From a virus: DNA of 64,000 nt. This document shows, in pieces, positions 14,804 through 57,290 of this stretch (position 1 is the first letter of the stretch; each line of letters starts with the position of its first letter). The translations under genes and the position numbers were made by a program. Under the pieces are notes generated by a model that worked only from the letters and a program-made list of their open reading frames with translations, was not told the origin of the DNA and made no database searches. The DNA is taken from positions 7,000-70,999 of the IMG/VR virus record IMGVR_UViG_3300045241_000083. One strand, written 5' to 3'.

Positions 14804-15042
14804 CGTGCAGTCTTCTCCGTGCGCCGTTCGGCCAGCAAGACGCGGGAGATATGCGCCCGGTGAACGATGATGAGCGGGTCTTTCCGGTAGCACTTGACCA
14901 CGAGCATCTGCGCGGCTACCTTCAGCTTGGCAGTGTCCGCCTTCAGCGCGTCTGCCTGCTTGACCTCGGCCTTCACCTGGGCTATCTGCGCGCGAGCGGT
15001 CATGCAAAACGCCAGCAGAATTGCTACCAATCCGAGTTTCAT
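14800..15042 (-). CDS. small protein with signal peptide
   Basis: MKLGLVAILLAFCMTARA; coupled. Confidence 0.5.
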   Translation of the reverse strand: MKLGLVAILLAFCMTARAQIAQVKAEVKQADALKADTAKLKVAAQMLVVKCYRKDPLIIVHRAHISRVLLAERRTEKTAR

Positions 15043-15422
15043 AGGTTGCTCGTCCCTTCTACGCCGCGCGCCGTCCGCTCCCGTGTTCGGTGCAGGAGCC
15101 AGTGCATGGCATCTTCAACGTGCGTCAGTGCGATAGCGTTCTCGCGGCAAGAATACGGGCCTGACTGGAATCCCTGTAAGCGATGCCGTACGATGGCAAG
15201 CAACGCCTCATTCGACACACCGTTGACGCCCGCTTCGCTGATCGGCCCGTTCTGAAACGAAACAGTTCCATAGCGCATTCCGTCTGGCTTTCCGTCATGA
15301 ATCGCGTAGACGTGCGAGGCATTCCCGGCCCCTGGCGCATCTGCATCGATGAAGAGCGATTCGTTTAGTGCGTTCACCTCATGCCCGTGAACCGGTGTTG
15401 TGAAAATTGGCTGCGAGTTCAT
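15039..15422 (-). CDS. tad1: Tad1-like (Thoeris anti-defence 1) signalling-nucleotide sponge
   Basis: G.GNASHVY...FQNGP...GV.NEALLAIVRHRLQGFQSGPYSCRENAIALTHVEDAMHWL..RT..R.ARGVEGT matches the Tad1 family pattern; AAGGAG SD. Confidence 0.8.
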   Translation of the reverse strand: MNSQPIFTTPVHGHEVNALNESLFIDADAPGAGNASHVYAIHDGKPDGMRYGTVSFQNGPISEAGVNGVSNEALLAIVRHRLQGFQSGPYSCRENAIALTHVEDAMHWLLHRTRERTARGVEGTSNL

Positions 15423-17856: not shown

Positions 17857-20800
17857 TTACTGACCTGCCTTGGCCTCTTCACGCATATCGCGCATATCTC
17901 GCCGTAAATCTCGTAGTTCGGGCGGGACCTTTGATTCAGCACGCTCAGGAGAACCTCTGACTATGCGCGAGTTGAACGGATCGAACAATTCGCTCGTTTG
18001 CGGGATACTCTTTGGCTTCAACTTCTGCCGCAATCTTGGAACGCGAGCCTTCACGTAATCCATGACCGTTTGCCGTCTGCGCTCCTTCTCGTCCATCTGC
18101 GCCGCGATGTCCGCGATGAACGTCGGGACGAAACTGCCGATAGAAGAGCCTGCCAGGAACTTCGCGCCCTGCGAGGAGCCTATCTCGCCCCAGTCCTGCG
18201 CCGCGTGCAGGTATGGCAGTTCCCGCAGCGATTCGGCCACGGGATGAAGCGGATCGGTCTTGCCTGTAACTGCATCCGACAGGCTCGCCCCAATCGCGAA
18301 GAGTGTGCCGATCGGGTTGATGGTCTGCGTCTCGTAACTTCGCCTTCCGACCTTGACGCCCGGAGCGGCCCACCCCTTACGCTTCAGGTTCTCGCGTTCC
18401 TTCCAGTCCTCGGGGTATCCGACGGCTTGTCCCTTGCTTCTCATATACGCGCCCAAAGCAATGATTCCCAGCCCGACCAATCCGCGTCCGAAGGTGCGTG
18501 AGAAGTTCCGCTGCTCCTCAAGGCTCATCGTTTCGCCGACCTGCTTACGGGCGTAGACCTTCGCCGCTTCGTATACCATACCAACCGGCGTGTACTCCAG
18601 CATCCGCGCCACTATATTGACTGGCACGGTCTGGACAGGGAAAACGAAGTCCAGCACGTTCGCCGCTATGTGTCCGGGAAGAGCCGCCGGCCCCTTGCGT
18701 TCCTTGCCTCTCATACTCGCCGTGAACGCCCGCATGCCCGTACTGAGCTTGTTCTTGTTCAGGAAGACCGCTGCCTCCGCTTCCGTAGCGGCCATTGCCG
18801 AGATAGCTTCAGCGTCCATGTGAGGATAGACGCGAGCCAATTCCTGTCTGGCCCGTTCGAATGCGGCGAGCTTAAAAGGCCGGTACGCGGCAGAGTGAGC
18901 GCGCGAAGCTGCTTCGACGTAAGCGTCACCGATAGCAGTCCCAGTGCTCGGCGCGAGATGCAGACCAGTTGAGGTAGAGCCGATCGGCTGCATTCCCGTT
19001 CGTTCCTGCGCCTTCGTCTCGCCATGTCGCGCGATAGCCGCCGCCTCCGATATCCCCTGTGTCGCCGCCTTATAACCCGCCTGAGCGACTTCTCCGAGTC
19101 TGGGCGCAAATGCCGCGCGCCGACCTGGAACCGATCCGACGATGCTCGATCCCGCCTTGGTAGCGACCAGCGCGTCCACTACTGCGCTTGGAATCTTCCG
19201 CACTTCCTCCGCGCCGAGGTATATCCCGTGGGAGACGAGAACCTTCGCGATGATCCGGGGAGCCGTAATCAGTCCAGCCCGACGGATAGCGAGGATCTTC
19301 TGTGTGAACGATACTGGCTGCATCATCAGGATTTCGGCGTTCACCTGATCGCGCAGCGCGTCCCGCTTGCTTCGCGCTTGGGCCAACTCTTCGTCAACCG
19401 GTCCCGGCGGGCGAGCCTTCTTCTGGAAATCGCGCTCGCGTAACTGTCGTTCGAGTTCAGCTATGGACTTGGCAGTCATCCTTTTCGCCTGCGCGAGCCT
19501 CTGTTCGTCAGTCATCTTGACCGGCTCGGCAGTAGCTTTACGCATCTCCTGCAACTGGCTCAACAGCGCGGCATGTTCCAGTTTCGCTTGACCGAGTTCT
19601 TTCGACCAGACCGCGACCGTCTGCTTCTTCCCTTCGATATCACCCACCTGGATACGGCGGTTTAGTTCGGCATTGGCCTTCACGGTCGCGCGCAGGCTCG
19701 ATTCGATCTTGCGTTGTTCGGGACTGCCCTTCACGGCATCGCGGGCCGTTTTTCGTAGGGCCGCCATCTGCTCTCGTAACTTGACCTGCTGCTGCTTCAG
19801 TTGGCCGAGTTCAGCGGACCACGGTGAGGATGCCGTCTTCGCCCCCTCGATGTCGCCTGACTGAATCCGCTTCTGTAGATCGGCGATGGATCGCTGAGTA
19901 GCGCCGATAGCCGTCCTGATCTTGCTTTGGTCGATGTCGCCCTTGTTTAGATTGTCATATACACCCTGGAGTCTGTCACGTTCGACCTTGAGCGCATTGG
20001 CCTCCGCGTCGTACGCGATCTTCGTCTGCTCCGGCTTCTTCGTCTTCGTGTCGATGTACCTGTTAAGGTCCGTGATCTGGTTCTTCAGCCGCGTCTTAAC
20101 AGCGTCCATTGCGCTCTTTAGCCCCTCCGCCGTGGAACGTGTATTGGCTATTCCCTGCTTGCGCATCGTCTCATTGACTTCAGCGGTCAGACGGCGCACC
20201 TCGGCGCTTTGGGCGTCGCGCTGGAAACCCGTCTTCAGCGGACGCTGTCCCTTCTGAGCGTCCTCCAACTGCTCTATCTTGAGCATCTGCGCTTTCATCT
20301 CGCGAAGCGTCGCGGCATTCTCTTCCGGGTTAGGCTTCGTCGTCTCTCCGTACCGGCTGATAGCGCGGCGGATGTCACTGTGGGTTATGCCCTCGATAAC
20401 ATCCTTGGCCGTCTCGTGGATTTCGCTGACCAGCGCGCCGATTTCCCGGACGCCATGCGAGATCAGGACCTTTGCCATCCTGACGACGATGCCAGCCTCT
20501 TCCGCTGGTAGCCTGACGGCGCCGGACTGTCGGCTGGTAGGCTTGCCCGGTCGGGAACGTAGCGCGCGCCACTCGTCCGCAAGGCCCTTGAGTTCGGCCT
20601 TGAACTCGCCTCGCGCCGCAGTACGGTTCAGTTTGCGGGTCGCCTTCTGGCCCTCGCGCGTCAATTCCTCGACAGCCGATTGCGCGCGCTGGTTCTCGTA
20701 TGCCGCGTCCGCCGCCTTCTTCTCCTGCTCCTTGGCTGCCCGGTCCTGTTCGGCCTTCTCGTATTCGGCGACCTTCGCCCGCAGGGATTCCACTTCCGCG

Positions 20801-23800
20801 CTATTGATCGAACTGCCCTTCGCCATTACCGCCCGCCCGACGACGGCCTTCAGGCTCATCTTGTCGTCAATTGTGAGCTTGCGCGACTCGAGCGCGCGGC
20901 CCTGCATCGTGCCCGACTTCTTGTCGATCTCGGCGATACTGGCAAACTCCTTCAGCAACCGCTCGCGCTCGGAGCCGGCGCGCAGTATCTCGCGGCTGCC
21001 GGTAAGCGTAGACGTGGCTTCTTCCAATGCAGGCAGGCGGTTCTTGATCTGCTGGAGCCGGATGTCAAGTCCAGCAGTCTCTTCGGCGCTCAGTCCGCGC
21101 GGACGAGATCGCATCTCGTCAATCGTGCCACGGATATGCTCCTCGGTATGAAGCCCCTGATCGAACGCCTTTGCGAGCGTTTCGATGTGTGATTGCGGAG
21201 TGTGCGGGTTCAGCGGAGGCAGGCCCAACCGCTCCAAGTCGCGGTTCACCGACGCGTTTCGAGAGGCCGTATCATCGCCTTCCGGTTTCGCCTCTCGTGT
21301 GATTTCCTCCGTGGGAACGCGCTTGCCGATCTCATTCCACGCGGCGTGAAGATTCTCGTCGCTGATCTCGTGTCCGAGGTCGGCGCGCATCCGCTTGGCC
21401 CATTCAGCGAACGTGCGGATACCCGCTTCGACGTGGTAGCCGCCGATCTCCACAAGGTCCTTGAGTATCGTCGGATCGATGCCCGCAGACAATCGGTTCA
21501 GCTTGTCCTTGAGTCGATTGACGGCTTCCTCGTACGCGTCTCTGGTGAAGACCTTGTTCTGCGCGCCGTACTCTTCGGCAGGCTTGGTCTTTGATTCCGC
21601 GCCCGCGCTCTCCGCCTTTTCACCAGTAGGACGAGGAGGCTCTGGCGCAGACTCAGCCTTCGGTGCCTCTCCCTGCTTCACAGGAGGCGTTTCTGCGGGC
21701 TTTGCGGCTGCGGGGGTAGGTGCGGGCGGCTCGGCGGGTTTGGGCGTGGGAGGCTCGCCAATATTCCAGTTGTTACCCTTTAACGACCAGCGACGACTTC
21801 CTGCAGGCCCCTTATTCAGCATGACGTAAGGTTCGGACGCCGATGCGGGATGGACAACTTTGCCTGCGTAGACTTGCCCCTTCTCGTCTTTCCACCAGAC
21901 CTTATCACCAACAACAGGAGCCCCACCGGATGGTTGACCTGCGGAAAGCCCCCCTTTCGCAGAATCCGGTGGGGTCGTTGTAGCTGCGGAGGACGGTGCA
22001 GCCACAGCGTTGACACGGTACTCCGATCCATCGGCGCGGCGGATGACATGCTCGCCGTCAACGATGCCCTCGTAGCGTGCGCCCTCCGGTACGGTGACGC
22101 CGGCAGGTGCAGGACGCGCTTCGGGGGCAGTTCCGCCGACGTGCACGTCAGGTTGTGCCGCCACCGCCCCCGAAGCCTTCTGATAGTCCCACTGCTGCCC
22201 ATCATGCGCGAGCCGGGACACGGTGCCCATATCCGGCGCGTCCTGCATGAACACATTCGGATCGAGCCGGATCGGGTTCATCGGCTCGCCCGCCGCCTTC
22301 CATGCCCGGATTGCACGCTGCACCGTCGAATTGGTCACGAGGACCGGCGTGCCGCCCTCAGCCCGCACCTTCTGGTAGGCCGGGATGATCTTGTCGATCC
22401 ACTGCTGAACCGACTCGCCGCCGGGGAACGCCTGGTCCGGGTTCTCGACGTGCTGGCGGATAATGGCTTTGTTCGCATCGTTATCCGGCTGCGTCCTGAG
22501 CGCATCACCGATGTCAAGCGGCTCGAACTCGTTGTTGACCACAACCGGCAGGCCACTGACGTGCGCCATGATCTTCGCGGCCTGCTGTGTACGCTGGAGC
22601 GGTCCCGAGACGATCCGGTCGGCCCCGCTGTCCTTCAGGCTCTCACCGGCCTGCGCCGATTGCTTCTTGCCGGCGGTCGTCATCGTAACGCCGCTCGGCG
22701 CGGAGAGTTTGCCCGCGCGATCCGGTATCTCGCCGTGGCGCGCGAACAGGACGCTCTCGGCTGTGCCGGGTGGAACGGTTAGCCCTTGCGATTGCGTGGG
22801 CGCTGAGGCTTGGACTGCGGCTTCGGCTGGACCCGCTCCGGCAGTCCCTTGAAGCCCCCCGGCTGCGACTTGGTTGCCTGCTCCCACTCCTTGATCTTGG
22901 GGAATTTGCCCTGGGACGCCAGTTCCTCCAGCTTGCGCTGCTGGGCCTTTGACTTGAACGGCACCTGTCATCACCTCCTCTGTTGGGGTTGGTACGACTG
23001 GCGGGGCGGTTTCGGCCATCTTCTCCGGTGCGCTGATAGCGCGTCTCCGAAGGTAGGTATCCGCCGTGTGACGGAGTGTGTCGGCCAGGTAGTTGAACGC
23101 CCACTGCCGGTTGTCGCCCTTCACGGACGCTGCGTGCTGTGACGCTACTTCCGCCGCGCCCCGCAACGCTTGAGCTTTGTCCAGTGATGGCTCCGACATG
23201 AAGCCTTCGACGATCTGCCCGACGCTCTTGCGGACGTTCTGTCGATCCGCCGCCGCGATCCCATGCTCCAGAATGGCCGGTGAAAGAGCCAGTAGGAAGT
23301 TGAACGACGCACCACCTGTGTCCCCTTCCCGCAGTTGGTTCATCGCGTTATTGGCGGCGTTGGCGGAGAAGCCAGCCATGATGCCACGAGCCAGCAACGG
23401 GGCGCGTGTCGCGATCGCGCCGACTCCCACACCGCTTAACTGCATCTCCGGGTCGGCGAGGCTGTAGAGAAACTTCTCCGCCTCCGGTGCGAAACCTCGC
23501 GCCTGCGCCAGTACCTTCGCCCCCTCCGGCCCGCGAATAAGGTTGGCAAGCACTTCTGACGGACGTAGGGTCGATATGTCGCCTGTCTCGTGGTTGATGA
23601 CCGCGCCAACACCAATCACGCCTTCCGGCCCTGTTTGCGGTGGAACGAACTCCTGTTTCGCCTGCTGCGCTAGTTCGTCGGCCTTCTCAAGGATCGCTTG
23701 CTGCGCGACCGGCTTCATCTTCTGCAGGCGCGGGAACCACGTTGGATCGGCAGGGTTCCTAGAAAGCGCGTCCGCCGCTCGCATAGGCACGTTGGCGCGC

Positions 23801-24906
23801 AGGTTGCCGGTGTTCATGAAGTCCATCTTGAACTTTTGAAGTTGGTCATCCGTGAAGAGCGTCGCGGGCGCACGCAGGCTCGTAGGCTTGCCCTGTGTCG
23901 ATGACGGGAAGATCACGTCAGACGCCGTGTAGCGCCCGTTTGAGGGAGGCGAGGCAGGAGACGGCCGCAGGTCCATCGGCGGCTGCATCGACGCCTTGAG
24001 AGCGGAGATAACAGGTTCAGCGGTTGCGCCGGAGACGGCTCCAGCCGCTGCGCCGAGGTCGCGTCCATAGAATCCGAACTGCTGCTTGGCGGCATCTGTC
24101 ACAGTACGCGCGATCGGCCCTGCCGCCGCTCCAGCAGCCGCGCCAATCTGCCCTCCAGCGGGTGTAGGTGTGGCGGACGGCGGCGTGCTGGAATATCCCG
24201 GTGGTAGCGGTGGAAGCGTTGGAGACGGAGCATTGCCCGCTTGGTCCATCTGAACAGCATCACTGAGCATCTGCGCCATGTAGCCAGGACCGGAGCTCGC
24301 GTACGATCCAGGCGGGACCTGAAAGCCTCTCGGCAGGCTGACGTGGATATGGTTGTAGTGGTCTCCACCGATATTCGTCTGCCACAGGTAGCCCTTGTTA
24401 GTGCCATGCTCGCCGAAGGAGTATCCTGCCTGCTCCAGGTGCGTCACCAGCAGGTCGCCGAGGTTCTTGCCCTGCTTGGAGGATAGCGGCACGCCGTTGA
24501 TTGTCGAGATGTCGAGCGCCAGCCCAGGGATATGCCGCGACCGGTTTCCACTCTGCGCTACCTGCAGGTTGTGTTCGAGGGTCCGCTGCGCCGAGCTGAT
24601 TCCGAGCTTGAATCCGAGGCCGTCCGCGATGTCGTTGATGTCATTCAGAAGTCCCGCATGAGCGCGGCCGCCTGACTGACCCATGAACTGCAGGCGCGGG
24701 AATCCGCTGATGGGAACGATTTTGCTCGGCGGAGCATCCGAGAAACCTGCTGGAAGAGGCGGCATGGAGGACGGCTGCGCGCCCTGGTAAGGGTTCGCAG
24801 GCACCGGCATCGGGGGCGCATCGGTGTAGCCGGCAGGTAGAGGCGGCAGCGTTGCGACTCCGCCGCCCTGGTCGCCTTGATTACCAGATTGAGGATCGTC
24901 CGGCAT
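17857..24906 (-). CDS. giant internal virion/ejection polyvalent protein (~2,350 aa) with M15-like peptidase and histidine-phosphatase-like domains
   Basis: SSAQRT...SRHIPGLALDI...HYNHIHV (M15 Zn-peptidase pattern); VLFARHGE...IVSGPLQRTQQAA...FPGGES (His-phosphatase pattern); long helical C-terminus; located after two smaller ejection-type genes. Confidence 0.8.
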   Translation of the reverse strand: MPDDPQSGNQGDQGGGVATLPPLPAGYTDAPPMPVPANPYQGAQPSSMPPLPAGFSDAPPSKIVPISGFPRLQFMGQSGGRAHAGLLNDINDIADGLGFKLGISSAQRTLEHNLQVAQSGNRSRHIPGLALDISTINGVPLSSKQGKNLGDLLVTHLEQAGYSFGEHGTNKGYLWQTNIGGDHYNHIHVSLPRGFQVPPGSYASSGPGYMAQMLSDAVQMDQAGNAPSPTLPPLPPGYSSTPPSATPTPAGGQIGAAAGAAAGPIARTVTDAAKQQFGFYGRDLGAAAGAVSGATAEPVISALKASMQPPMDLRPSPASPPSNGRYTASDVIFPSSTQGKPTSLRAPATLFTDDQLQKFKMDFMNTGNLRANVPMRAADALSRNPADPTWFPRLQKMKPVAQQAILEKADELAQQAKQEFVPPQTGPEGVIGVGAVINHETGDISTLRPSEVLANLIRGPEGAKVLAQARGFAPEAEKFLYSLADPEMQLSGVGVGAIATRAPLLARGIMAGFSANAANNAMNQLREGDTGGASFNFLLALSPAILEHGIAAADRQNVRKSVGQIVEGFMSEPSLDKAQALRGAAEVASQHAASVKGDNRQWAFNYLADTLRHTADTYLRRRAISAPEKMAETAPPVVPTPTEEVMTGAVQVKGPAAQAGGTGVPGQIPQDQGVGAGNQVAAGGLQGTAGAGPAEAAVQASAPTQSQGLTVPPGTAESVLFARHGEIPDRAGKLSAPSGVTMTTAGKKQSAQAGESLKDSGADRIVSGPLQRTQQAAKIMAHVSGLPVVVNNEFEPLDIGDALRTQPDNDANKAIIRQHVENPDQAFPGGESVQQWIDKIIPAYQKVRAEGGTPVLVTNSTVQRAIRAWKAAGEPMNPIRLDPNVFMQDAPDMGTVSRLAHDGQQWDYQKASGAVAAQPDVHVGGTAPEARPAPAGVTVPEGARYEGIVDGEHVIRRADGSEYRVNAVAAPSSAATTTPPDSAKGGLSAGQPSGGAPVVGDKVWWKDEKGQVYAGKVVHPASASEPYVMLNKGPAGSRRWSLKGNNWNIGEPPTPKPAEPPAPTPAAAKPAETPPVKQGEAPKAESAPEPPRPTGEKAESAGAESKTKPAEEYGAQNKVFTRDAYEEAVNRLKDKLNRLSAGIDPTILKDLVEIGGYHVEAGIRTFAEWAKRMRADLGHEISDENLHAAWNEIGKRVPTEEITREAKPEGDDTASRNASVNRDLERLGLPPLNPHTPQSHIETLAKAFDQGLHTEEHIRGTIDEMRSRPRGLSAEETAGLDIRLQQIKNRLPALEEATSTLTGSREILRAGSERERLLKEFASIAEIDKKSGTMQGRALESRKLTIDDKMSLKAVVGRAVMAKGSSINSAEVESLRAKVAEYEKAEQDRAAKEQEKKAADAAYENQRAQSAVEELTREGQKATRKLNRTAARGEFKAELKGLADEWRALRSRPGKPTSRQSGAVRLPAEEAGIVVRMAKVLISHGVREIGALVSEIHETAKDVIEGITHSDIRRAISRYGETTKPNPEENAATLREMKAQMLKIEQLEDAQKGQRPLKTGFQRDAQSAEVRRLTAEVNETMRKQGIANTRSTAEGLKSAMDAVKTRLKNQITDLNRYIDTKTKKPEQTKIAYDAEANALKVERDRLQGVYDNLNKGDIDQSKIRTAIGATQRSIADLQKRIQSGDIEGAKTASSPWSAELGQLKQQQVKLREQMAALRKTARDAVKGSPEQRKIESSLRATVKANAELNRRIQVGDIEGKKQTVAVWSKELGQAKLEHAALLSQLQEMRKATAEPVKMTDEQRLAQAKRMTAKSIAELERQLRERDFQKKARPPGPVDEELAQARSKRDALRDQVNAEILMMQPVSFTQKILAIRRAGLITAPRIIAKVLVSHGIYLGAEEVRKIPSAVVDALVATKAGSSIVGSVPGRRAAFAPRLGEVAQAGYKAATQGISEAAAIARHGETKAQERTGMQPIGSTSTGLHLAPSTGTAIGDAYVEAASRAHSAAYRPFKLAAFERARQELARVYPHMDAEAISAMAATEAEAAVFLNKNKLSTGMRAFTASMRGKERKGPAALPGHIAANVLDFVFPVQTVPVNIVARMLEYTPVGMVYEAAKVYARKQVGETMSLEEQRNFSRTFGRGLVGLGIIALGAYMRSKGQAVGYPEDWKERENLKRKGWAAPGVKVGRRSYETQTINPIGTLFAIGASLSDAVTGKTDPLHPVAESLRELPYLHAAQDWGEIGSSQGAKFLAGSSIGSFVPTFIADIAAQMDEKERRRQTVMDYVKARVPRLRQKLKPKSIPQTSELFDPFNSRIVRGSPERAESKVPPELRDLRRDMRDMREEAKAGQ
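22779..22964 (-). CDS. small basic protein nested out of frame in the giant gene
   Basis: AGGAGGT SD 8 nt before GTG; MPFKSKAQQR...KEWE..T......LPERV resembles a small phage protein family. Confidence 0.55.
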   Translation of the reverse strand: MPFKSKAQQRKLEELASQGKFPKIKEWEQATKSQPGGFKGLPERVQPKPQSKPQRPRNRKG

Positions 24907-24907
24907 A

Positions 24908-24937
24908 TTGCGTTGTACCTGCAAAACGTGCTACTAT
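24908..24937 (+). promoter_or_regulatory. promoter of the RAMP/pentamer-array cassette
   Basis: TTGCGT-18 bp-TACTAT with extended -10 TG; predicted start near 24944. Confidence 0.6.
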
Positions 24938-24943
24938 GTGAGC

Positions 24944-25049
24944 GTCACGGTCGCTGGAGTACAATTTCATAAAGAAGGCATGGCGCAAGCCATCCTCTCG
25001 ACGCCCGCTTTCCAGCGACCGTGACAAGTAGCTGAGATGGCGGGCGTCG
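24944..25049 (+). ncRNA. structured leader RNA of the RAMP cassette
   Basis: 15-bp IR (24944-24958/25011-25025); internal ATGGC-GCAA-GCCAT hairpin; competing 10-bp pairing 24999-25008/25040-25049. Confidence 0.55.
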
Positions 25050-25060
25050 TTGCGTGTGCC

Positions 25061-25280
25061 GATCAGCTTTGACCTGATGGGCCGCGCCAAGTCAGGACTA
25101 GCCGAGATACGTCTTGTTCAGATCAGTTAGGCTCCGATATGCCACGGCGAGATATGTTTTGCCCGGTTGCGATGCGCCCGGACGCGATTGGACTTGATGG
25201 GCCAAGCCGGGACAAGTTCCGAAAAGCTATGCCGAGCCACGCCTGGCTGTGACAAGTTCGGATGAGACGGGCCGAGTCTT
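25061..25280 (+). repeat. pentamer-periodic non-coding array 1 (44 x G-H-Y-N-N), candidate guide RNA
   Basis: G at position 1 in 44/44 units, pyrimidine at position 3 in 43/44, G at position 2 only once; positions 4-5 variable. Confidence 0.92.
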
Positions 25281-25304
25281 ACTCTCTCTCAGAAAGGAAC
25301 GAGA

Positions 25305-25970
25305 ATGTCCACTGCTACGAGAACGAAGGGAAACGGAAAGCCAGTTGCGATTGAGACGTTGGACACAAGCCAGACGACGAATGGCGGCGATTTTGTTGTC
25401 GACAAAGGCCGCCCCTACATCGCAACCGTGAAAATCGAGGGAGTCGCGACACTCCTGCTTCACGCATGGAACTGCGATTCGGTCGAAGCGAAGGCTGGAG
25501 CCGTGAAGGGCAGTTCGGCCAAGAAGACGGATGATGTAGAATCGTACGTCGTTCGGGCATCGAATGGCGAAATCGGCATTCCCGCATCGTACTTCCGCGG
25601 CATGATATGCGGGGCGCAGGGAGCCGCGAAGTATCGCCAGGACCCGCGCTCGCCGCGAAAGTCCGCGCTCGACCTGTACCGCGCTGGCGCGGTGATTATG
25701 ACGGAGATTGCATCGCTCGGCGTCAAGAAGTGGGACCTGCTCGACAAGCGGCGCGAGGTAGTCATGCGCGCTGGTATCACGAGAGTGCGTCCTGCTATGC
25801 TCGCCGGTTGGCGGTGCGAGTTCGATATTCAGTGCATCCTGCCTGAGTACATCAGCCCACACGATCTTCACTCGGTTCTCGTCGATTGCGGCCGTCTCTG
25901 CGGCCTAGGTGATCATCGTCCCACATATGGACGGTTCGCCATCGTCGGCTACGAGGTTCGGCAGCTTTGA
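25305..25970 (+). CDS. stand-alone RAMP/Cas7(Csm3)-like RNA-binding protein
   Basis: VKIEGVATLLLH (beta1), GEIGIPASYFRGMI (compare IPGSSLKG), GWRCEFDI, C-terminal Gly loop GRLCGLGDHRPTYGRF; AAAGGA SD. Confidence 0.8.
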   Translation: MSTATRTKGNGKPVAIETLDTSQTTNGGDFVVDKGRPYIATVKIEGVATLLLHAWNCDSVEAKAGAVKGSSAKKTDDVESYVVRASNGEIGIPASYFRGMICGAQGAAKYRQDPRSPRKSALDLYRAGAVIMTEIASLGVKKWDLLDKRREVVMRAGITRVRPAMLAGWRCEFDIQCILPEYISPHDLHSVLVDCGRLCGLGDHRPTYGRFAIVGYEVRQL

Positions 25971-26193
25971 CTCGCTCAGATGCGCTATGTCTCGCCCTGC
26001 CACGTCAGGACAGGTTGCGACTCGTCTTGTCGCGCTGTGGCAAGTCGCGCTGCGTTAGGACGTGCTACGCATAGCCGAGACAAGTTCCGCCAGGACAGGA
26101 TCAGATCGGATATGCTCAGTTCAGCCATGCTGTGTTGTGTTTGGTTTAGACAAGCCTAGACAAGCCAAGACTGGATTAGTCGTGCTTCGATTA
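25964..26193 (+). repeat. pentamer-periodic non-coding array 2 (46 x G-H-Y-N-N), candidate guide RNA
   Basis: G at position 1 in 46/46 units, pyrimidine at position 3 in 45/46, G at position 2 only once; starts at the last codons of the RAMP gene. Confidence 0.92.
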
Positions 26194-26197
26194 TCTC

Positions 26198-27697
26198 CTA
26201 CCGCTGCGGCACCCACTGGCCGTTCTGTAGGAGGAATGTCACCGGACGCCCCTGCGCATCGTAGGCGCGCCGCGTGACTGGCGCGCCTGTCGGTGCCTTT
26301 GGCGGTGCAGCAACTCCCGGAACTGCGGATTTGGCGCTCGACGCAAGAGCGTTGGCCGCTTGATTCGTTGCGGTAGGACTCGGATTGCCGGTAGCCGCTG
26401 AGCCAACCTGCATGTATCCGCCTTTCACAAGCGAGCCGTAGGCATCGTCACGCAGACCCTTCAGCGCGTCCAATGTCCCTTGAGCCTGCACCTTCTGCTG
26501 AGCCAACTGGTCCAGTTTCCTGACGGCGAATGGATTACCTATCGCGGCCATGTTTAGGAGCGCCGAAGGGATCTTCTCGTCAAATCCTGTCAGTTGTGCC
26601 TCCAACGCCGCCGTGTCCCGTTTCAGCCCGTTGTACGTCGCCCTGGCATTGGCTGCCGCTATCCTCCGGTCGCCTTGCGCGAGTTTCGCCCAGTCAATCT
26701 GTGAAAGCAGGGAGACCTTCTGGCTTGCGACCGTTTCCAGCGCGCGCCGATGCGTAATCAGTGACTGCTGCACCTGGCGCTTGAGAGCGTCATCTGCAGG
26801 AAACGCGGCTACCTGATCTTTGAGTAACGCCGAACGCTGGTCGGCAACCTCTTTGTACGCCTGCGCGCGCGTCTGTGCGGCCTGCGCCGTCATCGTCCTC
26901 GCGGCGGTCACCGCCGGTATCGCGCGCGCCTGAGCATCGTGCCACGCCTTGAGTGCGTCATCCTTACCGATCTTCGCCTGCTGTCCAGCCGTCAGTTGCC
27001 CGAAGAAGTCACGAGGCAAGCCAGGAACGTCGGGCGCGTGAGGAACTCCCTCCTGCTGTTGGGCTATCCCCGGCGCAGCTCCAGCGACAGAAGCCGCCGC
27101 GCCGATCGCCGGGGCCATCATGCCCATCATCCCGGCCGCGGGATTGAACGGCGACATCGCCATGCCGCCCATCATTCCCGGCATTCCCTGCTGTGCACCA
27201 AACTGCGCGGATTGAGGAAGCTGTTGCTGCATCGCCCTCTGCGTGTCCATCTGCTTGCCGCGAGCGACCGCCGCGACCTGCTGCTCCACCGGCGTCTCGT
27301 GCATCCAGCGCGCGAGAATTCCGTAGTTCAGGACCTGCTCCGGCGTCGCGCCAACACCCACGAGGCTTGTGACGAGACCCTTCGTGTCGTTGGGCCCCCA
27401 CTGCTTCTTCTCTCCTGTGTTGTCGGCGCGCGCCTGCGCTTCGGCAGTCATGGCCTTCGTGTAGTCCGGTCGCGCCTGTGCCTCCTTAAGCTGCGCGTCA
27501 CGAAGCCCCTGCCCCTGGTTCCATTCCAGCTGCCGCTGTGCGAACTCACGCGCCTGCTGGTCGCGGATGGCGTTCTGGTACGCCGCAGTCTGCGCCTGCT
27601 GCTGCTGAGCTAGGCCGTAGTTCTGCTGCGATTGCTGCTGTTGGTCGAACTGGTTTCGACCCTCGAACAACGCTTGCATGAAGGGAGAGAGACCCAC
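26198..27697 (-). CDS. putative internal virion/DNA ejection protein
   Basis: Gln/Ala/Met/Gly-rich helical protein between nozzle genes and the giant protein. Confidence 0.7.
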   Translation of the reverse strand: MGLSPFMQALFEGRNQFDQQQQSQQNYGLAQQQQAQTAAYQNAIRDQQAREFAQRQLEWNQGQGLRDAQLKEAQARPDYTKAMTAEAQARADNTGEKKQWGPNDTKGLVTSLVGVGATPEQVLNYGILARWMHETPVEQQVAAVARGKQMDTQRAMQQQLPQSAQFGAQQGMPGMMGGMAMSPFNPAAGMMGMMAPAIGAAASVAGAAPGIAQQQEGVPHAPDVPGLPRDFFGQLTAGQQAKIGKDDALKAWHDAQARAIPAVTAARTMTAQAAQTRAQAYKEVADQRSALLKDQVAAFPADDALKRQVQQSLITHRRALETVASQKVSLLSQIDWAKLAQGDRRIAAANARATYNGLKRDTAALEAQLTGFDEKIPSALLNMAAIGNPFAVRKLDQLAQQKVQAQGTLDALKGLRDDAYGSLVKGGYMQVGSAATGNPSPTATNQAANALASSAKSAVPGVAAPPKAPTGAPVTRRAYDAQGRPVTFLLQNGQWVPQR

Positions 27698-56655: not shown

Positions 56656-56895
56656 ATGAAAAGCAGACTAAGAGATTTCATGGCGGCTCATGAAGCGTAC
56701 CAAGTAGCCAAAGAGAATATCCGGCGCGACGGAGGGCCTATGCTGAGAGAGTGGCGAAAAGGCAAAGGCGTCTCGCTAAGAGCTATCGCCAGAAGGTTGT
56801 GCGTAAGCCCTTCGTATCTGTCGAAGGTCGAGCGAGGAATCGAGTTCATCACGCCGGAACTGACCTTGCGCATCTTGGAGGAGATGGAGAAGTGA
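56656..56895 (+). CDS. XRE-family HTH regulator
   Basis: LREWR...GVSLRAIARRL.VSPSYLSKVERG. Confidence 0.88.
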   Translation: MKSRLRDFMAAHEAYQVAKENIRRDGGPMLREWRKGKGVSLRAIARRLCVSPSYLSKVERGIEFITPELTLRILEEMEK

Positions 56896-57290
56896 GATAC
56901 CGCTATTCCCCAAACGTAGGCCCATCCAGCCCGAACAGAAAGTCTCGCGTCAGTCAGGAAAAGTGCGACTTTGCGACCCATCTGCGCAAGAACATGACAG
57001 AGTCCGAGACTTTGCTTTGGGAAAGGCTTCGCGGCAATAAGCTGGGCGTTCGGTTCAGACGACAAGCCATCGTGTTAGGGTATATCGCGGATTTCTGGTG
57101 TCCCACTTTTCGGCTAGTAGTTGAGCTGGACGGAGCTTGCCACGCTGAGCGCGTAGCATACGATGCGGAGCGAGACAGAAACCTTGCTAAGCACGGCATC
57201 CACACGCTACGCATTCCTTCGCGGCAGGTGTTTTCAGACATGGCCGGAGTTATCCGCCGCATCAAGCAATCATTCGATCAAGCAGACTAG
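56892..57290 (+). CDS. DUF559 / Vsr-like endonuclease
   Basis: LRKNMTESE.LLW..LR...LG.RFRRQ...YIADF.C...LVVELDG..H......D..RD..L...G...LR. Confidence 0.9.
   Translation: MRYRYSPNVGPSSPNRKSRVSQEKCDFATHLRKNMTESETLLWERLRGNKLGVRFRRQAIVLGYIADFWCPTFRLVVELDGACHAERVAYDAERDRNLAKHGIHTLRIPSRQVFSDMAGVIRRIKQSFDQAD

Follow-up and report, generated by a model that had tools for sequence, protein, structure and literature searches.

A probable VIPR system with long G-H-Y-N-N guide arrays in a soil phage

We describe a short plus-strand cassette (positions 24,908 to 26,193) in a 64,000-nt stretch of phage DNA, here called the window, which corresponds to bases 7000-70999 of the linear IMG/VR virus record IMGVR_UViG_3300045241_000083 (CheckV completeness 83%); the carrier is a roughly 71-kb soil phage. 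The cassette is very probably a VIPR (Viral Interference Programmable Repeat) system with one vipr gene, two flanking guide-RNA arrays and no accessory gene, and by homology it should work as the system of Escherichia phage SUSP1 does. According to the available text of the two papers that first described it in 2026, VIPR is a CRISPR-like, RNA-guided silencer of DNA (10.64898/2026.04.26.720920, 10.64898/2026.04.26.720927). Systems of this kind are thus already in print, and the new part is the scaffold of the guides, which follows G-H-Y (G, any base except G, pyrimidine) in place of GGY, a variant that is tied to the protein pocket for the second scaffold base, the G2 pocket.

Two pentamer arrays and the gene between them

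The main features of the cassette are these:

25061..25280, plus strand: vrRNA (guide RNA) array 1, 44 G-H-Y-N-N pentamers in a single register, extending to the ribosome-binding site of vipr
25305..25970, plus strand: vipr, coding for a 221-aa Vipr (ancestral RAMP / Cas7-like) protein
25964..26193, plus strand: vrRNA array 2, 46 G-H-Y-N-N pentamers in a single register

An initial annotation of this DNA, made from the letters alone, had placed a 221-aa open reading frame (ORF) between two arrays of pentamers that are not copies of each other, and our recount agrees with it in the coordinates, the length of the gene, the 44 and 46 units and the composition of the columns. When both arrays are pooled, position 1 is G in 90/90 units and position 3 is a pyrimidine in 88/90 (C46/T42/A2). 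With the composition of the window, the probability of the first column is ~1e-48 and that of at least 88 pyrimidines in the third is 2e-23, therefore chance is excluded as the source of the arrays. Positions 4 and 5 are nearly random (entropy 1.97 and 1.98 bits, respectively); every one of the 16 NN pairs is present (NN entropy 3.90 of 4 bits) and 56 of the 90 pentamers are distinct. Position 2 has the composition A33/C33/T22/G2 (entropy 1.68 bits), where the window composition predicts about 26 G (~29%), which is a depletion with P = 2e-11. The longest other period-5 run of a single base on either strand of the window is 9 units, and no third array was found across the whole record of 70,999 nt.

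Only four units break the rule, namely GGCGA (unit 18) and GAAAA (unit 33) in array 1, and GGCAA (unit 16) and GCATA (unit 22) in array 2. Ahead of array 1 there is one extra G-phased unit, GTGCC (25056-25060), with G at position 3. Array 2 begins within the final codons of vipr, 7 nt ahead of the point where its stop codon ends, and finishes 4 nt short of the stop (26198) of the convergent minus-strand gene. The RNA of both arrays folds no better than its shuffles (z +0.38 for array 1 and +0.52 for array 2); unstructured arrays are what is expected for single strands bound by a protein, and we count this in favour of a VIPR system. The sequence itself is well supported, as an independent assembly of the run from which the DNA probably comes, a Logan contig of 70,653 nt at depth 15.7, has the 1,701 bases of 24700-26400 with 0 differences.

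Regarding the protein, the Vipr chain of SUSP1 (36pp_D) was the only match among the PDB sequences, with E 7e-6 for the window protein alone and 4.4e-11 with a profile of 31 family sequences. The match runs from the thumb over the last helix to the glycine-rich G-loop, where the window sequence GLGDHRPTYGRF is aligned with GVGDWRPRFGRF of SUSP1. Judged by its sequence, the 221-aa protein is a Vipr. The initial annotation had referred to phage systems of a RAMP gene plus pentamers under this name, and they are indeed in print (10.64898/2026.04.26.720920, 10.64898/2026.04.26.720927), the Vipr of known structure being a sequence homologue of the window protein. Pfam, NCBIfam and PADLOC, Cas7 families included, gave no match to the vipr product at E <= 10, and PHROGs only phrog_4652 (1.4e-10), which has no known function.

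The RAMP/Cas7-Csm3 nature that had been read from sequence hallmarks was supported by a structure search with an AlphaFold (AF2) model (pLDDT 81.3, pTM 0.73), which points to a Csm3/Cmr4-like fold. The top match of Foldseek was Csm3 (9ash_F, E 4.6e-6, TM 0.52), among 83 matches at E <= 0.001. In a comparison with 48,161 representative chains by VIA-align, CRISPR RAMPs fill the first 20 rows, the top two being 6s6b_I (Cmr4-like; Z 11.8, rmsd 3.8, 149 residues aligned) and 6ae2_B (Csm3; Z 11.6, rmsd 3.0, 147 aligned). No Vipr chain appears in the Foldseek or VIA-align lists; the Foldseek library ends in April 2026. In INPHARED, the sole phage with a relative of the window Vipr is Phage DSL-LC04 (OR003939.1, 22438-23019, 52.8% identity), where the gene is annotated as 'helix-turn-helix transcriptional regulator', probably a mis-annotation.

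The Vipr family comprises 4,820 proteins at E <= 1e-3 among 5,099 candidates. We collected loci of relatives from IMG/VR (the best 80 of 340 stretches), JGI metagenomes (30) and GTDB genomes (19, mostly metagenome-assembled genomes of Phycisphaerales and Acidimicrobiia), which after removal of duplicates gave 100 distinct loci, that is, the window and 99 relatives with 44-60% identity. A locus was counted as array-bearing when at least 8 G.Y.. pentamers were present on the gene strand within 1.5 kb. The initial annotation had proposed the periodicity of the flanks of homologues as a check, and 95 of the 99 relatives' loci carry pentamer arrays on the gene strand (96/100 with the window), therefore we take the locus to be a VIPR system. 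The four loci below this threshold are L031, L045, L090 and L128; two of them have almost no flank, and in L045 the units look looser by eye. Altogether, 5,955 units in 286 arrays were counted in the relatives; the in-register runs have a median length of 14 units and reach up to 138, so arrays of 44-46 units are normal for the family.

No neighbouring gene is conserved across the 100 loci, the largest real neighbour family occurring in 12/100 and the bigger clusters being antisense or array-derived pseudo-ORFs. The family of the window Vipr is thus solo-vipr, and very long unpunctuated arrays without an accessory gene are the normal form in this very large family. In L271 (1387-2334, minus strand) and 18 further loci the pentamer arrays translate as long open frames, so ORF callers take array sequence for an extension of Vipr genes or for proteins that do not exist.

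The second scaffold base and its pocket

Position 2 is G in 50-100% of the units in 94 of the 95 relatives with arrays, against 2/90 in the window, which agrees with the initial view of the locus as a divergent GHY/NN variant. We found only four further loci with a G-free position 2 (L053, L178, L271 and L272), which belong to three Vipr lineages. The first, L053, is the sole exception among the 95 array-bearing relatives: this complete phage of 58.6 kb encodes a Vipr with 53% identity to that of the window and has G at position 2 in 0/11 units, with a terminator-like hairpin and a T run after the array.

The other three came from a scan of IMG/VR for 14 consecutive units, (GHYNN)x14, which matched at least 135 loci. 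Among the matches listed, crude classes were 62 GCC-NN, 48 simple repeats, 16 GAC/GTC-NN and 9 mixed; the GCC-NN matches are the reverse strand of canonical GGC-NN arrays, and most matches are therefore not of the window's kind. Three of the mixed loci have window-type arrays on the strand of a Vipr gene. In L178 the Vipr is 46% identical across the 99 residues present on the contig, and none of the 90 units has G at position 2, which is mostly C (55/90). In L272 a 187-aa Vipr-like ORF (36pp_D, E 1.8e-3) is followed from its stop codon onward by 50 units (G2 1/50), and in L271 there are 52 units (G2 2/52) upstream of a Vipr-like ORF (36pp_D, E 1.1e-5). The seed units of these three loci are biased, because the pattern demands not-G, but the rule still holds over the extended arrays.

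The same scan gave arrays of GAC-NN (GTC on the other strand) with the fixed part in every unit, at L150, L166, L202, L203, L215, L216, L226, L237, L252, L253 and L263. Several of them adjoin ORFs with weak matches to the family profile (E 1e-5 to 1e-6), and these arrays may represent another class of VIPR scaffold, one in which position 2 is always A, the guide strand being either of the two.

In the solved SUSP1 structure, as far as its published text describes it, there is one Vipr protomer per repeat; H17 and D177 read G1, G2 is sandwiched by the thumb residue R138 and the G-loop residue W178, and the residues that form the pocket of Y3 include C173 and R179 of the next protomer (10.64898/2026.04.26.720927). 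In the HMMER alignment, R162, C199, D203, H204 and R205 of the window protein correspond to R138, C173, D177, W178 and R179 of SUSP1, and H53 corresponds to H17, in a low-scoring stretch that is not significant alone. Mapped in this way, the contacts in the window are H53 and D203 for G1, R162 and H204 for the G2 pocket, and C199 and R205 for the Y3 pocket. The residues that contact G1 and Y3 are the same as in SUSP1, in line with an invariant G1 and 98% pyrimidines at position 3. In the G2 pocket the thumb Arg is kept (R162) and His204 stands in place of the stacking Trp178. Each of the other G-H-Y loci is without one G2 contact: the thumb Arg is Trp in L053, Ser in L178 and Phe in L272, and Trp178 is Lys in L271. 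Among the aligned array-bearing members of the family the thumb Arg is kept in 89/90, the lone exception being L053. On an alignment to one solved structure, we infer that the change of scaffold goes with a change in the residues that contact G2.

Furthermore, G at position 2 is selected against and not merely released from constraint. A loosened pocket would give about 29% G and we see 2%, which leaves two explanations, rejection of G by the remodelled pocket or avoidance of GG on other grounds. P0014, known as a protein and 63% identical to the window Vipr, has Cys for the thumb Arg and Leu for the G-loop aromatic; as both SUSP1 contacts of G2 are gone, a G-free position 2 is predicted for its guides.

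The published rule for VIPR is GGY/NN, and the window and the four other loci make clear that natural systems differ in the scaffold half of this code: the second G is in some cases excluded and not just relaxed, and this accompanies changes in the two residues that hold G2 in the solved structure. The window is a clear and large example (90 units) of a scaffold of G, not-G and pyrimidine, which is not named in the text of the VIPR paper as far as it was available. A full-text literature search for such a scaffold gave no VIPR paper among the best 10 of 337 matches; the supplements, the figures and two October 2026 preprints that mention VIPR may already contain it. Such a locus offers a direct and cheap way to probe how Vipr reads its scaffold, and if the two scaffold codes were orthogonal, independent programmable repressors could work side by side in one cell.

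A further idea, which we put forward only tentatively and consider rather improbable, is that the not-G rule is a second scaffold code that insulates guide loading, so that GHY and GGY Viprs would refuse each other's RNAs. Rival phages and satellites with vrRNAs of their own do exist, according to the available text (10.64898/2026.04.26.720920). If insulation were true, the GGY vrRNAs of rival phages or satellites could not hijack the protein, nor could a rival's protein capture the guides of the phage. Likewise, the repeated independent loss of G2 contacts, at four loci in three lineages, would mark an arms race over the identity of guides and not over targets.

It could also be thought that position 2 has joined the guide, base 2 (A, C or U) reading the skipped target base so that each unit would specify three target bases. 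The 1.68 bits of entropy at this position are near the maximum for three letters, and the G2-contact residues differ in all five Viprs of the G-H-Y type. Nevertheless, we consider this highly unlikely. In the SUSP1 structure, base 2 is held between the thumb and the G-loop and the scaffold bases are flipped off the target, as stated in the available text (10.64898/2026.04.26.720927), and the thumb Arg is kept in the window; in addition, a letter that is never G has no obvious use, and the mostly C position 2 of L178 (55/90) resembles a loosely kept scaffold letter and does not resemble information.

Mode of action, guide boundaries and targets

As published, in the text available, VIPR systems are mostly phage-borne; they pair a Vipr protein with vrRNAs of 9-16 YNNGG repeats that end in a tail, and many have a vap gene as well (10.64898/2026.04.26.720920). 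In SUSP1 the whole scaffold triplet points away from the target (10.64898/2026.04.26.720927), N4-N5 pair with double-stranded DNA with every third base skipped, and binding represses transcription (10.64898/2026.04.26.720920, 10.64898/2026.04.26.720927). By analogy with SUSP1, the array-gene-array unit of the window would be transcribed from the plus strand, and Vipr protomers would polymerise on the arrays, one per pentamer. Each pair of protomers would lock away G1, base 2 and Y3 and present N4-N5, so that the string of NN could pair with double-stranded DNA of the form NN-x-NN-x, one base being skipped per unit, and the filament would block transcription of a rival mobile element. The initial annotation had likewise proposed a non-CRISPR RNA-guided system in which a lone RAMP/Cas7-like protein polymerises on pentamer RNA, binds a scaffold of 3 nt and displays NN, a reading that the homology supports.

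Several results weigh against this picture or against its link with the pocket. The window keeps the thumb Arg, which three of the four other G-H-Y loci have lost, and is the sole G-excluding case with this residue. We tried His204 as the explanation of the missing G and rejected it: 17 other relatives bear His there and have G2 in 72-100% of their units, so His204 alone is not sufficient. In the thumb, the window has the substitutions Y145L, V151E and Q154M at otherwise conserved positions, which are candidates for the exclusion of G and as such only leads. Two residues, S71 and C177, are common to the window and L053 and rare elsewhere in the family, two loci being too few for a conclusion. 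The closest relatives, P0002-P0014 (62-75% identical), are known as proteins, and no relative's locus above 60% identity was found in IMG/VR, JGI metagenomes or GTDB genomes, so the comparison at the DNA level covers identities of 60% or less. A consensus scan of 24600-26600 found neither a sigma-70-like promoter nor a plus-strand terminator, and thus gives no support to the initial claim that the cassette has its own promoter. Nothing recognisable as a 3' tail, a pseudoknot or a break of register divides the arrays into guides of 9-16 units, and an uncut RNA of 44-46 units would specify 132-138 bp. Finally, no target at 80% or more was found in the own genome or in 1.04 Mb of fetched loci, a search space far too small to show absence.

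Regarding the boundaries of the guides, we found no conserved tail, and a hairpin downstream of array 2 is no more stable than its shuffles (z -0.78). Cutting at the rule-breaking units would give pieces of 17, 14 and 11 units in array 1 and of 15, 5 and 24 in array 2. As most of these pieces are near the published range of 9-16, the rule-breakers could be guide boundaries, but this is only a guess. The sequencing runs listed as holding the stretch include no RNA run, the sole run being the probable DNA source.

Some relatives have punctuated guides. In L013 (IMGVR_UViG_3300013121_000002) there are five arrays upstream of the Vipr gene, with 13-28 GGY-NN units each; every one ends with ATGGTCG or ATGGTGG and then a hairpin, and 4/5 share the hairpin GGGGAGGC GAAA GCCTCCCC. 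This is a clear guide tail, and the window arrays have no such tail. The AT-rich relatives L017, L018 and L045 have separate short guides of about 11-18 pentamers, which mostly end with GGCATGGA and then a T-rich stretch (TTTTTT or TACTTT). In L017 and L018 the punctuation is GGCATGGATTTTTT, a U-tract tail that is not seen in the window. Furthermore, L017 has an A/T-rich promoter-like stretch after each guide, so that each guide looks like its own transcription unit.

Targets were searched in the phage itself and in 0.69 Mb and 1.04 Mb of fetched loci with guides of 10, 12 and 14 units, skips of 0-3, both strands and shuffled guides as controls, and the real guides scored like the shuffled ones. 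In the 70,999 nt of the phage itself no site matched a 12-unit guide at 80% or more with a skip of 0, 1 or 2 (best 18/24); the record is an estimated 83% complete and the missing part could hold such a site. We count this in favour of a VIPR system, since it parallels the published ones, whose natural targets are satellites, prophages and other VIPR systems and for which the available text reports no self-targets (10.64898/2026.04.26.720920). The same two facts argue against a system that acts as a timing switch for the phage's own genes with no attack on rivals. The position of the cassette, antisense within the late structural block, and the lack of an accessory nuclease would suit such a switch, but we give it a very small probability, slightly below that of a guide role for position 2.

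Least probable of all is that the arrays are decaying, non-working relics of canonical GGY/NN arrays, as could be suspected from the departure at position 2 in 88/90 units and from the lack of a detected tail and promoter, because decay would also have hit G1 and Y3 (still 90/90 and 88/90) and driven position 2 toward ~29% G and not 2%, the ORF is intact with all the invariant residues of the family holding in the alignment that includes the window, and the same rule is found at four other loci over 11 to 90 units.

Returning to the VIPR system and the content of its guides, a codon-phase test of the NN pairs gave 'sense codon positions 1-2' as the best of six models in the window (+3.2 bits, against -9.5 +/- 5.6 for random dinucleotides), a weak point in favour of the mode of action given above. 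In 74 relatives (5,233 units) no model beat the background, and only the phases with the wobble base first were clearly disfavoured.

Classification and genomic setting

The window has a minimal RAMP homologous to Vipr and, on the gene strand, tandem 5-nt repeats with a conserved part of 3 nt plus NN, as VIPR systems do. Its units are not the canonical GGY (G2 in 2/90), but the paper allows 'a related consensus' in its available text, so a missing GGY is no bar to membership (10.64898/2026.04.26.720920). The same text describes seven types and six vap genes, with vap assigned to types II-VII, and alternative repeats NNNGG, YNNNG and NNNNG as well as staggered or ribozyme-interspersed arrays (10.64898/2026.04.26.720920). 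No same-strand neighbour gene that could be a vap lies next to vipr in the window, nor is any neighbour conserved in the family, which suits a type without vap. From the assignment of vap genes to types II-VII and the excess of one type over the vap genes, as far as the text describes them, we infer a vap-less type, putatively type I, for the window; if there is a vap-less type among the seven, a vap is not required.

The closest described comparison is the type II VIPR of Escherichia phage SUSP1 and of a Pseudomonas fulva prophage (PDB 36pp). Both proteins are small phage-encoded RAMPs with a thumb and a G-loop, both genes are flanked by non-coding 5-nt arrays with a 3-nt fixed part and a hypervariable NN, and both systems have common G1/Y3-contact residues and no self-targets. 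In contrast to SUSP1, position 2 is not-G in place of G, His replaces the stacking Trp178 and there is no vap in the window, whose 44 and 46 uninterrupted units without a recognisable tail or pseudoknot differ from the tail-capped SUSP1 guides of 9-16 units. Moreover, the sequence similarity is not significant outside the C-terminal third. With the VIPRs of alternative repeats, as described in the available text, the window shares a non-canonical scaffold and long arrays. In the published register its unit is YNNGH, which lies outside the named NNNGG and YNNNG, whereas NNNNG may cover it. Unlike the staggered or ribozyme-interspersed arrays, the window locus shows no register shift within its arrays and no ribozyme in an Rfam scan.

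Compared with Csm3 and Cmr4, the Cas7 backbone proteins of class 1 CRISPR, the fold is common and there would likewise be one subunit per fixed guide step, with the thumb breaking the duplex. However, the step is 5 nt with 2 paired bases and not 6 nt with 5, and other cas genes and a repeat-spacer array are lacking. A Pfam scan (E <= 1e-4) found no Cas family among the 60 ORFs of the window, and the pentamers are the sole arrays of the record, none of repeat-spacer form, in agreement with the initial annotation. Thus, the locus is not a class 1 (type III-like) CRISPR-Cas system.

Three smaller features of the cassette are the following:

24944..25025, plus strand: leader hairpin with a perfect 15-bp stem (24944-24958 / 25011-25025) and an interior of 52 nt
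25064..25073, plus strand: 10-nt word CAGCTTTGAC, which opens array 1; a second copy at 25962-25971 opens array 2
25293..25299, plus strand: ribosome-binding site AAAGGAA, 5 nt ahead of the vipr ATG, read off the sequence

The word CAGCTTTGAC may be a common start or processing signal, or the trace of a duplication. The leader hairpin lies between the start of a giant minus-strand gene and array 1, and its inverted repeat folds strongly (141 nt, -61.4 kcal/mol, z -4.4, with 0/200 shuffles equal). The structured leader of the initial annotation is therefore real as a fold, but its assignment to the cassette is one of two possibilities: because it is just upstream of the start of the giant gene, it may belong either to the plus-strand transcript or to the mRNA of that gene. 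The hairpin is not conserved among the fetched loci of relatives. In the window locus and 19 relatives' loci no Rfam family reached its gathering score and no hammerhead was found; at E <= 1 the window locus gave just a chance match to mir-284, on the minus strand of the leader.

The cassette occupies a 1.27-kb gap between two minus-strand genes and runs in the opposite orientation. Its minus-strand neighbours include the terminase, an SU10-like portal, a capsid protein and internal virion proteins. It had been seen as an interruption of a 44-kb minus-strand operon; the block is there, ~43 kb of structural genes that are mostly on the minus strand, but the cassette shares it with a few further ORFs of the plus strand. 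Relatives of the neighbouring 499-aa gene, which were sought in IMG/VR as a test of insertion polymorphism, were not found.

Other genes of the window also deserve mention. A 2,355-aa protein of the virion module (17857-24924, minus strand) combines a histidine-phosphatase domain at residues 725-876 (E 2.7e-18) with a DarB-like antirestriction stretch at residues 1095-1436 (E 1.7e-19), and it is probably an ejected multi-domain internal protein. A 126-aa ORF (15039-15419, minus strand) matches the Acb2/Tad1 hairpin domain weakly (E 5e-5; 23.9 bits, the cut-off being 27) and may be an anti-defence sponge. Finally, a DUF559 (endonuclease-like) protein (56751-57287, plus strand, E 6.6e-29) lies between phage replication genes.

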